The notes beneath the pieces are model-generated. The model was not told the origin of the DNA. It saw only the letters and a program-made list of their open reading frames with translations, and made no database searches. This document shows positions 17,311 through 40,510 of a DNA stretch of 52,393 bases, piece by piece. The position numbers were made by a program, and so were the translations under genes. The DNA lies in IMG/VR virus record IMGVR_UViG_3300048999_000021, positions 1 to 52,393 of that record, one strand, 5' to 3'. The stretch is from a virus. Lineage: Duplodnaviria > Caudoviricetes. Numbering within the stretch: the first letter of the stretch is position 1; every line of letters starts with the position of its first letter.

Positions 17311-17326
17311 AGCCCGACTCCGATCT

Positions 17327-17344
17327 GGCGGACCCTCATCCGCC
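17327..17344 (-). promoter_or_regulatory. Leader hairpin with UGAGGG loop (copy 5)
   Basis: GGCGGA-TGAGGG-TCCGCC, then GAGTCGGG at 17313-17320. Confidence 0.8.
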
Positions 17345-17353
17345 GATATACAT

Positions 17354-17382
17354 ACTGTACGCCACTATGCAACGTACGTCTA
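17354..17382 (-). promoter_or_regulatory. Sigma70/SigA-like promoter
   Basis: TAGACG-N17-TACAGT. Confidence 0.7.
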
Positions 17383-17583
17383 CCCCGAGTTGCACAAAGC
17401 CCCGACCGGGACTATGAGTTCTAGGCCGCCGCGACCTCGTGGCCGGGTGACGGCCTTATCGCACAGGTCCGTGACGCTTCGCTTGAAGATGGCACCGATG
17501 TGTTCGAGCAGCCACCCCACATCAGCCGAGCTAGGCGTGTTACGCGGATAGATCCTCAGTTTGCCGGTCGGCCTACTCGGCAT
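17380..17583 (-). CDS. Hypothetical protein
   Basis: GGAGGTACCG-ATG; 67 aa. Confidence 0.5.
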   Translation of the reverse strand: MPSRPTGKLRIYPRNTPSSADVGWLLEHIGAIFKRSVTDLCDKAVTRPRGRGGLELIVPVGALCNSG

Positions 17584-17866
17584 CGGTACCTCCACGGGCC
17601 TCGCTTTGGGCGTGCTTGAAGCCGCGATGGTAGGCGTCACTGAGTAGGTGAGCCAGCTCCGATGAGTCCCATATGAACCGTGCCAAGCACACCGTGGTCT
17701 GGCAGTTGTGATCGAAGAACTGGTGCCGAGTGACGAGGTTCAAGATCTGCTGAAAGTCGTCGTACTCGCAAGCCGCGAGCGGCGTGCTGTCCTCAAGTTC
17801 GTACCTCGTCGCGGCGATGTCCTGCGCTGCTGCGGTTTCTAGGAACGGCCGCATATCAAACATCAT
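17573..17866 (-). CDS. Hypothetical protein
   Basis: GGAGGTACCGA-ATG; 97 aa. Confidence 0.55.
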   Translation of the reverse strand: MMFDMRPFLETAAAQDIAATRYELEDSTPLAACEYDDFQQILNLVTRHQFFDHNCQTTVCLARFIWDSSELAHLLSDAYHRGFKHAQSEARGGTDAE

Positions 17867-18179
17867 TCGGTACCTCCACGAACCACCCGATCGGCGGCGT
17901 GCTCCAGGACACCGTTCCAGCCGATGGCGTGGTCGGTGCGCGGCGAGGGCATGCGCCAGCCACGGACCTCGTCGGCGATGTCGTGAGGGCGGTGAGGTCT
18001 GCCATGATCTTGTCTGCCTTTCCATGTAGGGACCATACGAGGTTGCGCAGCGTTGGTTGACGCCGGCGCAGGTATCGCTTCACAGCCGCGAGCTTAGACC
18101 CCGTTTCAGCCCGTCTAGCTGAGCCGCTAGGTGGCATTCTAAGCGATGGGGCTAGCCCTATCCGACGACCGTACGAAAC

Positions 18180-18977
18180 CTACGGCTCCATCGAACTAGC
18201 GGCATCCTCAGGCCGCTCTAGGGCTATGAGCTCATCCCGGATCATGCGCCGAACTTCCGGGGAGTTGGGATCAGCCCCGAGGTTCGCTGCAATGTTGGCG
18301 ATCGCGCCGTTGAGCTGGAGCACCAGCGTCTCTTGCAACCGGATACGGCGCTCTTCCAGGCCGGCCGAGATCCCGATCTTGAGCAATGATGCATAGTGAG
18401 TGCGCTCCTTGAGGTAGATCCCGGCCCAGTTGTGGACCCTGGCCTCCTCAACCTCCATCACATATGAGGCATCCTGTGGCTGCCCGCCATCACCATAGCT
18501 AACAGCGGCGTCCTTGACCTCGCGCTTGGTACGGCCCCAGATGACCTCGCTCGGGTCAAGGTCGGCCAGGTACTCCTCGCAGGTGATGATGTTGCCAGCC
18601 GTGCGCCGCAGCTCCCACAGGTAGCCCGTCACAGGGTTCGCGCCGACGTGGTTCTCGTCGGCAAGGTTGTTGCCATAGCCTCGCTTGGCCAGCGCTATGG
18701 TCGCCTTGGCCAGCCTCGACTTGGCTACCACAGAGGGGAACCGGCCGCCGTGAGTGGGCATCTTGCAGGTATGTGTGCCAACCAGAGCCCGATTCTTGCA
18801 GCGCTCACCATTGCGCTTGATGAAGGTGCAGCGCTTGCCGTCATCCAGCGGCGCATCAAAGCCGTTGCTCCTGACACCCCGTGGCCTTTTCACGACCTCG
18901 CTGACCGGCACAGCCTTCACCGGTGGCTTACGACCTCCAGGTGCAACCTTAGCCATTGACTCCTCCAAGCTCTCCAA
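18180..18977 (-). CDS. Terminase small subunit
   Basis: RCTFIKRNGERCKNRA...CKMPTHGG Cys/HGG motif and ER..Y..L.K..I.AGLEERRIRL C-terminus, typical of actinophage TerS. Exact start uncertain. Confidence 0.75.
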   Translation of the reverse strand: MESLEESMAKVAPGGRKPPVKAVPVSEVVKRPRGVRSNGFDAPLDDGKRCTFIKRNGERCKNRALVGTHTCKMPTHGGRFPSVVAKSRLAKATIALAKRGYGNNLADENHVGANPVTGYLWELRRTAGNIITCEEYLADLDPSEVIWGRTKREVKDAAVSYGDGGQPQDASYVMEVEEARVHNWAGIYLKERTHYASLLKIGISAGLEERRIRLQETLVLQLNGAIANIAANLGADPNSPEVRRMIRDELIALERPEDAASSMEP

Positions 18978-18979
18978 GA

Positions 18980-19136
18980 TTCAGTTCGACCTAATTCAGT
19001 TCGACCCAGCAGTTCGGTATTTTTCAGCTTTGCATATGTCAGTGGTTTTCAGTTCGACCCCCCTAACGGGGGAGGGTCAAACTAAAACCAGACTGACCCG
19101 CACCATGGGTCAAGGTGGGTCAAGGTGGGTCAAACT
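18980..19136. repeat. Iteron-like repeat cluster (candidate origin or pac region)
   Basis: TTCAGTTCGACC x3 (18980, 18995, 19048), inverted GGGTCAAACT x2 and TGGGTCAAGG tandem copies around a lower-GC spacer. Confidence 0.7.
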
Positions 19137-38908: not shown

Positions 38909-38937
38909 ACGCTACTCCACATACTTTGCATTGGCTA
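38909..38937 (-). promoter_or_regulatory. SigA-like promoter
   Basis: TAGCCA-N17-TAGCGT. Confidence 0.6.
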
Positions 38938-39690
38938 GCGGACCTGCACCAGCGCGTCGAGGAACAGCGCCCGGTATCCCTCGCCCGACTCGTCGCAGAA
39001 CGACAAGATCCGCCGGCCTAGCGTGTCCTCAGCCTTTGAGTTGGTGATGAAGGTGGAAGTGTCAGAGACTGTCTTGAAACCTTCCTTGGTCTTGATCTCG
39101 CGAAGCTCAGCCGGCACCCGACCCTCCTCGTACGCGTTCGACATCGAGTTGCGCCACACCAGCTTGCGGCCTCTGATCTTGGCCAGCACGGTGGCGTCAT
39201 CAGCGGTCAAAGGATCGAATGGGACCTTCTGGGTCAGCTGGCGTACGGCAGCCTGGGCCACGCCGACCGGGCGCCGAGTGCTCATCGGAGCGTTCTCGAT
39301 CGCGGTCTGGCTGAGGATCTTCCGGCCCTCGCTCGCGTTGCGGACGTTGCGCGCGTGCTTGGCAGCCTCGTAGCGACCGGGATAGACGAACTGGTCGTTG
39401 GACGCCCAGCTCAGCTCCAGCGCCTCCGTCCCGCGCCGAGCGAGCACCGTCTTTCGCTTGGTCTTCGGATCGCGGATCTTCTCCACGGTCCACCCGGCCG
39501 CCTCTGCATCATCGGCGAACCGGCGTGGCTTGCTCGGAGTGGCGGACTGGCTCGCGCTCGCCATGGGCGCGGCGATCTCGTCCTTGGCTCGGTTCTTCGG
39601 CAGCTTCGAGGTCGCGTTGTTGGCTGCGTGTCTCTCGCTGAGTGCGGCCGCGCGGCGGCGACCTGCACCCTTGACTGTGGTTGTGGCCAT
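38935..39690 (-). CDS. Basic early hypothetical protein
   Basis: AAGGA RBS; 251 aa; PFD...D..VL..IRGRKLVWRN...LDALVQV C-terminal domain. Confidence 0.7.
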   Translation of the reverse strand: MATTTVKGAGRRRAAALSERHAANNATSKLPKNRAKDEIAAPMASASQSATPSKPRRFADDAEAAGWTVEKIRDPKTKRKTVLARRGTEALELSWASNDQFVYPGRYEAAKHARNVRNASEGRKILSQTAIENAPMSTRRPVGVAQAAVRQLTQKVPFDPLTADDATVLAKIRGRKLVWRNSMSNAYEEGRVPAELREIKTKEGFKTVSDTSTFITNSKAEDTLGRRILSFCDESGEGYRALFLDALVQVR

Positions 39691-39708
39691 GTTGGTTCCT
39701 TCCCGACT

Positions 39709-39724
39709 CCCGGCCCTCACCGGA
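39709..39724 (-). promoter_or_regulatory. Leader hairpin with UGAGGG loop (copy 2)
   Basis: TCCGG-TGAGGG-CCGGG abutting GAGTCGGGA at 39701-39709. Confidence 0.75.
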
Positions 39725-39731
39725 TGGATGG

Positions 39732-39760
39732 AGCCTACCGCCCGAGGCGACGGTAGGCTA
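39732..39760 (-). promoter_or_regulatory. SigA-like promoter within an inverted repeat
   Basis: TAGCCT-N17-TAGGCT; arms AGCCTACCG/CGGTAGGCT. Confidence 0.55.
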
Positions 39761-39923
39761 CCTGACCTTGCCGCCAGATCCAGCGGAGCGTCAAACCTGT
39801 GTAGATCACAGCGTAGACGATGCCCGTGATCAGAGCTCCGATAACCCAGCCGATGAGAGCCAGCCAGAACGGCGCTACGTATTCTGGCTGGCCGCCACGG
39901 ATGATGATGGGCAGGGTTACCAC
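39735..39923 (-). CDS. Small membrane protein
   Basis: Long hydrophobic stretch FWLALIGWVIGALITGIVYAVIY. Confidence 0.6.
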   Translation of the reverse strand: MVTLPIIIRGGQPEYVAPFWLALIGWVIGALITGIVYAVIYTGLTLRWIWRQGQVAYRRLGR

Positions 39924-40465
39924 CCCACCTTCGACGCGCAGACCGGGCCGATACCGCGCTGGATTGACTCAGCGTCGGTGAGCGTCCGGTTGCAGATCCC
40001 GCAGCGTCCGAGCTGGTGGCCGTAGGCGATCGCAGCCTGCTTCGCGTCGAACGCGATCGCAGTCAGGATCGTCGCGGCCTTGCTCAAGCTCTTGACCGGG
40101 TGGAAGTCGTCCGAGGCCTGGACCTTGACGAACGTGTAGCCCTTCCAGCGCCCGTCCTGCGGACGATCGATCTTGTAGAAGCGCCACACCTTCTCAGTCG
40201 AGCCGGCGAACTCGCCGAGCTTCATTTCTTCGATCGCGTAGTACGCGGTCGCTACGTTCGGCAGCGAGCGAGCGGCTGCGCGGATCTCGTCGACAGGCGA
40301 GGGACGGTGCTCGCGGACCGGCGCGGCGGGCAGGCGACTCGCGCCTGGGGCGTCATAGACCTGGGGCAGTTCGGCGTTCGGGAGCTTGCCCGAGTTGCCG
40401 TAGCACTGCTTCACGCCCGCGCTGTTCTCGTGGTAGTCCTTGCAGTTTCCGCATTTGACGGCCAT
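39917..40465 (-). CDS. DUF6011-like zinc-binding protein
   Basis: YG...GRCGICNRTLTD.ESI.RGIGPVCA C-terminus and an N-terminal CGNC...H...C. Confidence 0.85.
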   Translation of the reverse strand: MAVKCGNCKDYHENSAGVKQCYGNSGKLPNAELPQVYDAPGASRLPAAPVREHRPSPVDEIRAAARSLPNVATAYYAIEEMKLGEFAGSTEKVWRFYKIDRPQDGRWKGYTFVKVQASDDFHPVKSLSKAATILTAIAFDAKQAAIAYGHQLGRCGICNRTLTDAESIQRGIGPVCASKVGW

Positions 40466-40492
40466 GTCTGCTGGCCCCTTCCCGACTCGTGC

Positions 40493-40510
40493 GCCGGACC
40501 CTCATCCGGC
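40493..40510 (-). promoter_or_regulatory. Leader hairpin with UGAGGG loop (copy 1)
   Basis: GCCGGA-TGAGGG-TCCGGC, then GAGTCGGGA at 40480-40488. Confidence 0.8.

Follow-up and report, generated by a model that had tools for sequence, protein, structure and literature searches.

A UGAGGG-loop hairpin repeated in five predicted transcript leaders of an uncultured actinophage-like virus

Five hairpins with one loop

The virus record IMGVR_UViG_3300048999_000021, analysed here over its entire 52,393 bp (the window), carries on its minus strand five short hairpins whose stems differ and whose UGAGGG loop is identical, each lying between genes, shortly behind a predicted −10 hexamer and ahead of a start codon. 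Its recurrence, strand and pairing pattern show this element to be genuine and non-random, a repeated leader hairpin of RNA type, and it probably serves as a signal in the leader by which the first gene of each predicted transcript is controlled. An earlier note, made from the letters of this DNA, had listed the five hairpins (h1 to h5); all were recovered at the minus-strand positions given in Table 1, with the loop identical and every copy intergenic.

The TGAGGG hexamer as such shows no enrichment (23 occurrences over the two strands versus 32.2 ± 6.2 expected). Its 15 coding-strand occurrences comprise five flanked by stems of at least 5 bp and ten with stems of 0–2 bp, and the eight plus-strand occurrences include one 5-bp stem, at 17984. 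Across 100 dinucleotide shuffles, the commonest 6-nt loop on a stem of at least 5 bp was present twice in 13, three times in 78 and four times in 9, and never five times; the second-commonest 6-nt hairpin loop of the real sequence has three copies. When the five copies were aligned without gaps, 88.6% of 35 stem cells paired, compared with 67.4% after shuffling of partners (0 of 500 shuffles reached the observed value) and only 25.7–42.9% when partners were slid by one to three columns, with two-sided changes at five of the seven stem pairs. Complementarily, a hairpin-only covariance model was searched against both strands with filters off. It scored the five copies at 26.5–31.2 bits, followed by a terminator-like hairpin at 32165–32194 with 14.7 bits, and gave about 9 bits on the reverse strand of the five sites. 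Because the U-G pairs in h2 and h4 work on the sense strand only, this is the strand that folds. The earlier description of differing stems that still pair, with compensatory changes and U-G wobbles, is borne out on that strand, and comparable numbers of such hairpins did not appear within coding sequences or on the plus strand, all five model matches being coding-strand and intergenic. Among the five intact copies, almost no stem position has escaped change and the loop is the same throughout, which argues for selection on the loop sequence.

In four of five modelled leaders the hairpin is part of the minimum-free-energy fold, h2 being the exception. Pairing of the loop with an upstream CCCUCA at 40585 was considered as well and rejected, being absent from that fold. 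Contigs from four DNA runs of one soil study, compared over 21001–41000, show no differences at h1–h4 and therefore supply no natural variants with which to test the pairing.

Each hairpin starts 7–12 nt after a −10-like TAnnnT hexamer (12, 7, 9, 8 and 9 nt for h1–h5), as had been proposed, a spacing tighter than that from stem end to start codon (16–27 nt). Bacterial transcription usually starts 6–8 nt past the −10 element; on this assumption, and with promoters and start sites both predicted, the hairpins would begin about 1–5 nt from the transcript 5′ end. The pattern TAGACG-N16-18-TAnnnT occurs three times versus 0.21 expected (0 of 100 shuffles reached three), at h4, at h5 and at the hairpin-less site 32124–32152. 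GG(A/C)GTAnnGT occurs four times, always intergenic and on the minus strand, at h1, h3, h5 and 36752–36761, the last without a UGAGGG hairpin; the number by itself lacks significance (17 of 100 shuffles contain at least four), and it is the placement that matters. The hexamer at h2 sits inside the 3′ arm of a strong hairpin. Terminator counts from a consensus scanner were at or below shuffle levels.

A start-associated box separate from the hairpin, and the genomic setting

Every hairpin is trailed by the box GAGUCGGGA, exact in two cases and with one mismatch in three, at stem-to-box distances of 4, −1, 4, 1 and 6 nt for h1–h5. The earlier note had placed the box 0–6 nt behind the stem; at h2, one G is common to both. 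Exact copies of GAGTCGGGA number eight in the window versus 0.93 expected (0 of 100 shuffles reached eight), and seven of them lie on the coding strand, each with a start codon no more than 15 nt downstream. Hairpins are missing from five of these seven, which abut or overlap the start codon, three of them where genes adjoin so tightly that a promoter would not fit. The suggestion that hairpin and box form one bipartite signal does not survive this distribution: because five exact copies at start codons have no hairpin, the box is independent of it. We regard the box as a separate ribosome-binding motif (GGAG plus a UCGGGA spacer) resembling the start-associated sequences (SAS) of other phages and present at internal genes too. 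Most exact boxes follow a G, giving GGAG, and the hairpin-less copies read (G)GAG, UCGGGA and AUG in succession, that is, a Shine-Dalgarno (SD) core with a conserved spacer. Behind the hairpins, the box is 1–14 nt from the start codon, and h1, h2 and h4 have an extra purine run as SD.

Thirteen nucleotides upstream of the hairpin-less box at 36169–36177, a TGAGGG lacking a canonical stem (36191–36196) follows a −10-like GATAGT; we read this stemless combination of TGAGGG and box (36169–36196) as a putative, degenerate sixth cassette. The loop and 3′ arm of h1 recur in part at 40556–40574. The two degenerate relics, at 36196 and 40556–40574, suggest that the promoter–hairpin–box cassette was duplicated inside the genome.

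Other arrangements of these parts were also seen on the minus strand. At 36752–36816, a terminator-like hairpin is followed by a promoter-like site sharing GGAGTAnnGT with h1 and h3, and the leader of this site (36752–36761), in place of the UGAGGG hairpin and the box, has a hairpin of 4 bp, GGCC-AACA-GGCC, and an ordinary SD, AAGGAG. Past the holin-like gene, the stretch 40646–40681 forms a terminator-like hairpin in which a partial box, GAGTCGG, pairs with an exact box complement; this accounts for the sole plus-strand exact GAGTCGGGA, at 40648–40656.

The record has a GC content of about 63%, and its first 127 nt are identical to nt 52267–52393. This identity is probably an overlap left by the assembler from a genome that is circular or terminally redundant, and not a biological terminal repeat; discounting the overlap leaves a unique length of about 52,266 bp. 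All credible genes are on the minus strand, and their content is that of a lytic, actinophage-like siphovirus, uncultured and from soil. Besides the polymerase in Table 1, PHROGs and Pfam scans yielded a replication and repair set of an SNF2 helicase, an exonuclease, a Sak4-like annealing protein, a ThyX-like protein, a UDG and a primase/helicase. Along the phage direction, the lysis block ends near 40690, the early block runs from 40465 to about 17570, and the late block starts at 17310 and wraps across the record ends. The 1215-aa open reading frame (ORF) at 47960–51607 looks like a tape-measure protein by composition, and another very long ORF (1052 aa) is located at 6869–10027. An early gene at 36296–36709 (minus strand) encodes a basic protein (pI 10.6) whose tail is a histone-H1-like Ala/Lys/Pro repeat; soil-contig depth spikes at 36342–37008, and many unrelated contigs match this low-complexity repeat. 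Finally, the intergenic stretch 18979–19140, upstream of the gene starting at 18977 and just downstream of the primase/helicase genes, holds short direct repeats, namely a 13-mer present three times (minus strand GGTCGAACTGAAT/A), a 17-mer present twice and a tandem 10-mer, adjoined by a long hairpin. The cluster resembles iterons and may serve as an origin of replication or as an array of binding sites for a regulator.

Table 1 Positions of the hairpins, boxes, promoter-like sites and selected genes in the window
Feature	Position	Strand	Details
h1, GCCGGA-UGAGGG-UCCGGC	40493–40510	−	6 bp; 31.2 bits; before first early gene (ATG 40465, DUF6011 protein)
h2, UCCGG-UGAGGG-CCGGG	39709–39724	−	5 bp including one U-G; 26.5 bits; before basic 251-aa gene (ATG 39690)
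h3, GCGGGA-UGAGGG-UCCCGC	38882–38899	−	6 bp; 30.0 bits; before 59-aa gene (ATG 38862) and SNF2 helicase
h4, GGUCAGA-UGAGGG-UCUGGCC	24954–24973	−	7 bp including one U-G; 28.6 bits; directly after DnaE stop, ahead of 75-aa Arg-rich orphan gene (GTG 24932)
h5, GGCGGA-UGAGGG-UCCGCC	17327–17344	−	6 bp; 29.5 bits; head of late terminase/portal block (GTG 17310)
Promoter-like TTGATA-16-TACAGT	40523–40550	−	Upstream of h1; contains GGAGTACAGT
−10-like TAGGCT	39732–39737	−	7 nt before h2; weakest call, without clear −35
Extended −10-like GGAGTAGCGT	38909–38918	−	9 nt before h3
Promoter-like TAGACG-N17-TAGGAT	24982–25010	−	8 nt before h4; begins on DnaE stop codon
Promoter-like TAGACG-N17-TACAGT	17354–17382	−	9 nt before h5; contains GGCGTACAGT
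Box GAGTCGGGA after h1	40480–40488	−	14 nt before ATG
Box GAGTCGGGA after h2	39701–39709	−	10 nt before ATG; takes in last G of h2
Box variant GAGCCGGGA after h3	38869–38877	−	6 nt before ATG
Box variant GAGTCGGAA after h4	24944–24952	−	11 nt before GTG; runs into SD AAGGAGG
Box variant GAGTCGGGC after h5	17312–17320	−	1 nt before GTG
Hairpin-less box	43304–43312	−	1 nt before ATG; tail/lysis region
Hairpin-less box	36169–36177	−	Abuts ATG 36168
Hairpin-less box	32101–32109	−	Overlaps ATG 32101; downstream of promoter-like TAGACG-N17-TACCAT (32124–32152)
Hairpin-less box	30698–30706	−	Overlaps ATG 30698; 12 nt past upstream stop; no promoter
Hairpin-less box	16378–16386	−	Abuts ATG 16377; tight gene junction; no promoter
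DnaE-type polymerase	25008–27998	−	tblastn best 54% identity: Nocardia, Mycobacterium, Gordonia phages
75-aa orphan gene	24705–24932	−	Behind h4; pI 11.8; Arg-rich N-terminus; strong SD; GC content at third codon positions ~0.9
GH25 endolysin	41149–42060		
1215-aa ORF	47960–51607	−	Ala/Gly-rich, coiled-coil-like composition; without PHROG or Pfam match

Candidate functions of the leader hairpin

We favour, with a probability of about 0.4, a role of the hairpins as 5′-leader elements for protection and expression of the first cistron. A host sigma-A-type promoter would drive each transcript and the stem would supply 5′-proximal structure, with the UGAGGG loop, which holds the SD core GAGG, as a sequence-specific dock for a trans factor, most simply the 30S subunit, or else a phage or host protein. 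Stem and docked factor together would shield the 5′ end from 5′-end-dependent decay (RppH, RNase E, RNase J) and would raise or co-ordinate expression of the first cistron. This role is preferred because of the tighter tie of the hairpins to the −10 hexamer, the GAGG within the loop and the existence of documented 5′ stabilisers. At or near the 5′ end, a hairpin, a ribosome-binding site and a protein that binds there each feature as a documented mRNA stabiliser in PMC3997798, the cases cited there including STAB-SD, the aprE 5′ stem-loop combined with ribosome binding, a polypurine 5′ stabiliser, and flhDC mRNA, which is protected by two 5′-proximal CsrA sites. At 66 start sites in the present genome (a rough list), the usual SD cores are GGAG (27), AGGA (19) and GAGG (18). 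We also count in favour that a relative, record G002, presents a true SD (UGGAGG) in a hairpin loop at two gene starts. Short leaders of this kind could be usable as expression parts in actinobacterial hosts.

Several points weigh against this reading. A pure 5′ stabiliser needs no invariant loop, and the first U and last G of the loop, invariant as well, are unexplained by pairing of GAGG with the anti-SD. ViennaRNA pairs this U with this G, leaving a GAGG tetraloop that would be a poor pairing partner, and the folding of the leaders is not unusual (z = −0.69 to −1.24 for four, +0.13 for h2). The promoters are predicted, that of h2 being weak, and a consensus −35/−10 scan passes one of the five (h1); at least three promoter-like sites (36752–36761, about 36215 and 32124–32152) have no hairpin. 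Lastly, the evidence consists of five paralogous copies in one uncultured genome, and orthologous copies were not found in the collections described below.

In phage lambda, boxB is a short hairpin with a GNRA-like pentaloop that is read by an arginine-rich motif, and boxA is a conserved linear NusB/S10-binding motif beside it. We consider it unlikely, on balance, that the UGAGGG hairpins serve processive antitermination of this N/boxB type, in which a phage Arg-rich protein would bind the nascent hairpin and modify host RNA polymerase for terminator read-through. The likeness is that of a small, promoter-proximal hairpin of boxB-like size with a sequence-specific loop, found on nascent RNA near the promoters of several operons in a phage with small Arg-rich proteins; one hairpin is present per predicted transcription unit, across early, middle and late genes, and a loop-reading peptide predicts just such a fixed loop on free stems. 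The lambda nut architecture that the earlier note had invoked is, however, not matched. The loop is a hexaloop on 5–7-bp stems and not a pentaloop, there are five copies and not two, and the alignment of the five leaders contains the −10 hexamer, the hairpin and the purine box as its only conserved linear elements, with no boxA-like, pyrimidine-rich motif. That box, the sole conserved linear partner, lies downstream, is linked to the ribosome-binding site and also occurs without hairpins. No N homologue and no other antiterminator family was found when 40 proteins were compared with PHROGs and 30 with Pfam.

The terminator-like hairpins of the genome bear on this idea in both directions. One with a T-run overlies the helicase stop (36801–36816), another follows gene 1 (about 39846–39880), and a 13-bp hairpin plus TTTG (about 15268–15303) is situated between h5 and the terminase with no promoter-like site between, all of which would give an antiterminator something to act on. 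Fresh promoter-like sites, in turn, directly follow two such hairpins (at h2 and at 36752–36761), which looks like terminate-and-restart and not like read-through. Moreover, three UGAGGG hairpins at consecutive genes within 1.6 kb would be redundant for a processive mechanism, and nut function does not require tight coupling to the transcription start. Considered by itself, the GC-rich hairpin at about 15268–15303 (minus strand) is positioned just upstream of the predicted start of the terminase large subunit (15260), after a small unannotated ORF, and might terminate or attenuate transcription within the late operon.

The 75-aa orphan protein encoded behind h4 is a speculative candidate for a loop-binding factor. 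Its basic, Arg-rich character and gene features (Table 1) fit the part, and the succession of promoter, RNA site, small basic gene and terminator-like hairpin at h4 resembles the lambda order pL-nutL-N-tL1; the 3′ end of the gene overlaps the next ORF (24328–24720) at a terminator-like hairpin (24727–24747). Against this, another gene caller starts the protein at residue 19, whereby the Arg-rich part is lost, and the protein is an orphan: an exhaustive HMMER search of 1.84 billion representatives returned one match at E ≤ 0.001, whose record is likewise 75 aa long, is 99% identical and most likely represents the protein itself, and a protein atlas gave nothing usable for either the 75-aa or the 251-aa protein. 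The specific proposal that this protein reads the UGAGGG hexaloop to bring about read-through in early and late operons is slightly less probable again than antitermination in general. To our knowledge, no N/boxB-like, RNA-tethered antitermination has been reported for phages of Actinobacteria, and a literature search on boxB antitermination in mycobacteriophages gave, among the matches listed, Salmonella phages only. Should the hairpins prove to be antitermination sites, phages of high-GC Gram-positives would have a new type of transcription control.

A phage RNA-binding protein could alternatively sit on the hairpin, perhaps together with the box, and repress or time the five first cistrons, as do T4 RegA and gp43 or the coat proteins at their operators; we rate such a translational operator as improbable. 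The invariant loop implies a specific binder, the leader is short, with the start codon 16–27 nt from the stem end and the box linked to the ribosome-binding site adjoining, and the T4 gp43 operator likewise combines a hairpin with a single-stranded purine tract by the SD. However, the distance from loop to start codon varies between 22 and 33 nt and the hairpin overlaps neither SD nor AUG, so that occlusion of the 30S subunit is not obvious; the 7–12-nt spacing to the −10 hexamer is tighter than that to the start codon, and PHROGs, Pfam and protein-atlas scans revealed no candidate RNA-binding domain.

Very unlikely, in our view, is an intercistronic processing or termination signal, with the hairpins marking 3′ ends of upstream transcripts or nuclease cleavage sites. 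Actinobacterial terminators often lack U-tracts, h3 and h4 are about 35 nt past upstream stop codons, and the promoters are predicted only, but the stems are short (5–7 bp) with no U-run, separate and stronger terminator-like hairpins are nearby, conserved −10-like motifs precede the hairpins at fixed spacing, and both the invariant loop and the downstream link to the ribosome-binding site would be left unexplained. A double-stranded DNA operator, bound by a repressor or activator of the phage and overlapping the transcription start, can hardly be credited, even though the inverted repeat falls at about +1 to +25 of the predicted promoters and the authors of PMC3203893 interpret the extended SAS (ESAS) repeats of Cluster K phages in this way: the arms vary and covary around a fixed, asymmetric centre, the reverse of the Cluster O repeat pattern, the U-G pairs become A-C mismatches on the other strand, and the orientation is strictly that of one strand.

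Two further ideas were discarded, namely an N4-style phage RNA polymerase with hairpin promoters, for which the 1215-aa ORF has no polymerase motifs and a tape-measure-like composition instead, and a hairpin-dependent pause signal, for which the hairpin-to-box distance of 0–6 nt provides no fixed pause position.

Searches for the element and comparison with known systems

Relatives of the element in other phages, which the earlier note had suggested searching for, did not turn up in the IMG/VR, metagenome, genome and cultured-phage collections. Among cultured phages, megablast with 5 kb gave no match, and blastn with the 90-nt h1 leader returned three records at E = 10, all irrelevant. In IMG/VR, the helicase led to 16 loci of at most 39% identity, none of which carries the UGAGGG hairpin (best covariance model E = 0.17), and two leader-adjacent proteins led to no relatives. 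Scans for a pattern of hairpin core plus box matched 30 loci in IMG/VR, 51 in metagenome contigs and 33 in species genomes, with one match per locus; none is in a promoter-like setting, the loci come from unrelated phyla, and no second UGAGGG hairpin on a stem of at least 5 bp occurs in any metagenome or species-genome locus. We read these matches as chance. The scans demanded the exact loop together with its closing pairs and some of the box, and would therefore overlook forms that have diverged.

Hairpins of other kinds were noticed along the way. Two distant relatives have small leader hairpins of their own. In record G001 (locus L016, minus strand), intergenic hairpins at 34630, 33178 and 31029 share the loop CGCUGU on stems that differ; they lie about 20 nt before starts, one of them directly following a TATAGT hexamer. 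In record G002 (L005), the hairpins with the UGGAGG SD in the loop are located at 2400 and 7489, 2–7 nt before the start codon. With three and two copies, respectively, these are too few for a general rule. A single 17-bp intergenic hairpin (L006:16307–16345) has a GAGGG loop and GAU...GUC flanks as in the hairpins of the window; with homologous sites in L008, L009, L011, L012 and L017, it is conserved in six related 64–67 kb virus records, and it has the look of a terminator.

Rfam returned no match at the gathering score, and the three weak ones that it gave at E ≤ 5 lie in other parts of the window; that no Rfam family matches the hairpins agrees with the earlier impression of an element outside the described families. 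The nearest described systems are the SAS and ESAS of Cluster K mycobacteriophages (PMC3203893) and Cluster EF Microbacterium phages (PMC7302621), that is, of phages with actinobacterial hosts, where their function is given as unknown. Like SAS, the box is a short, asymmetric motif with an SD core, situated just upstream of starts (in seven of seven exact coding-strand copies), in a single orientation and conserved beyond the needs of a ribosome-binding site. The sequences differ, with GGGATAGGAGCCC in Cluster K, GGGAAAGGACCCC in Cluster EF and GAGTCGGGA here, and the box is an SAS analogue, not the same motif. SAS lie 3–7 bp from the starts of non-structural genes only, whereas the box is found at −1 to 14 nt and in the structural/tail region too.

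The hairpins, in the same line, recall ESAS in being inverted repeats immediately upstream of some copies of the shorter motif, in the larger intergenic gaps. ESAS, however, have 17-bp imperfect arms, a variable spacer and conserved half-sites, whereas the hairpins have covarying arms of 5–7 bp around an invariant 6-nt centre and, unlike ESAS, are tied to a −10 hexamer. According to the ESAS authors, departures from the repeat do not support RNA pairing (PMC3203893). With short arms, a fixed centre and compensatory changes at five of seven pairs, the hairpins do not have the defining properties of ESAS. The published SAS has symmetric ends, GGG...CCC (PMC3203893), which suggests that SAS might itself form a hairpin; should the favoured role, with a 30S or protein dock, be true, SAS motifs would become readable as SD-presenting mini-hairpins.

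The palindromes of Cluster O mycobacteriophages (TGTTCGGNNNCCGAACA) and of Cluster EG Microbacterium phages (GATCAACCNNGGTTGATC, 14–22 bp upstream of start codons) are also inverted repeats that recur in short gaps between genes. In them the arms do not vary and the centre is short or differs between copies, a layout fitting a dimeric DNA-binding protein, and the hairpins show the reverse pattern. The palindromes, furthermore, are more numerous (more than 30 in Cluster O), lie within genes in about a third of cases and have no orientation.

With the 5′ stabilisers described in PMC3997798 (ompA and papA stem-loops, the B. subtilis aprE leader, STAB-SD and a polypurine element), the hairpins share a predicted position near the 5′ end and/or an SD-like polypurine stretch upstream of the real ribosome-binding site, and in both the SD-like sequence is not the initiating SD. 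The stabilisers presented there are single and gene-specific, whereas the hairpins are repeated with an invariant loop, their stabilising role being a proposal.

Together, the over-conserved intergenic repeats of actinobacteriophages (SAS/ESAS and the Cluster O, EC and EG motifs) have been of unknown function since 2011. The present genome offers a compact case, combining RNA-type covariation, a fixed relation to predicted promoters and a box separable from the hairpin, and thereby replaces the loose idea of a regulatory repeat with an RNA hypothesis open to testing, in the form of a 20-nt hairpin with loop, stem and box independently mutable. The UGAGGG hairpins belong to this actinophage theme of intergenic repeats, as a variant not seen before.

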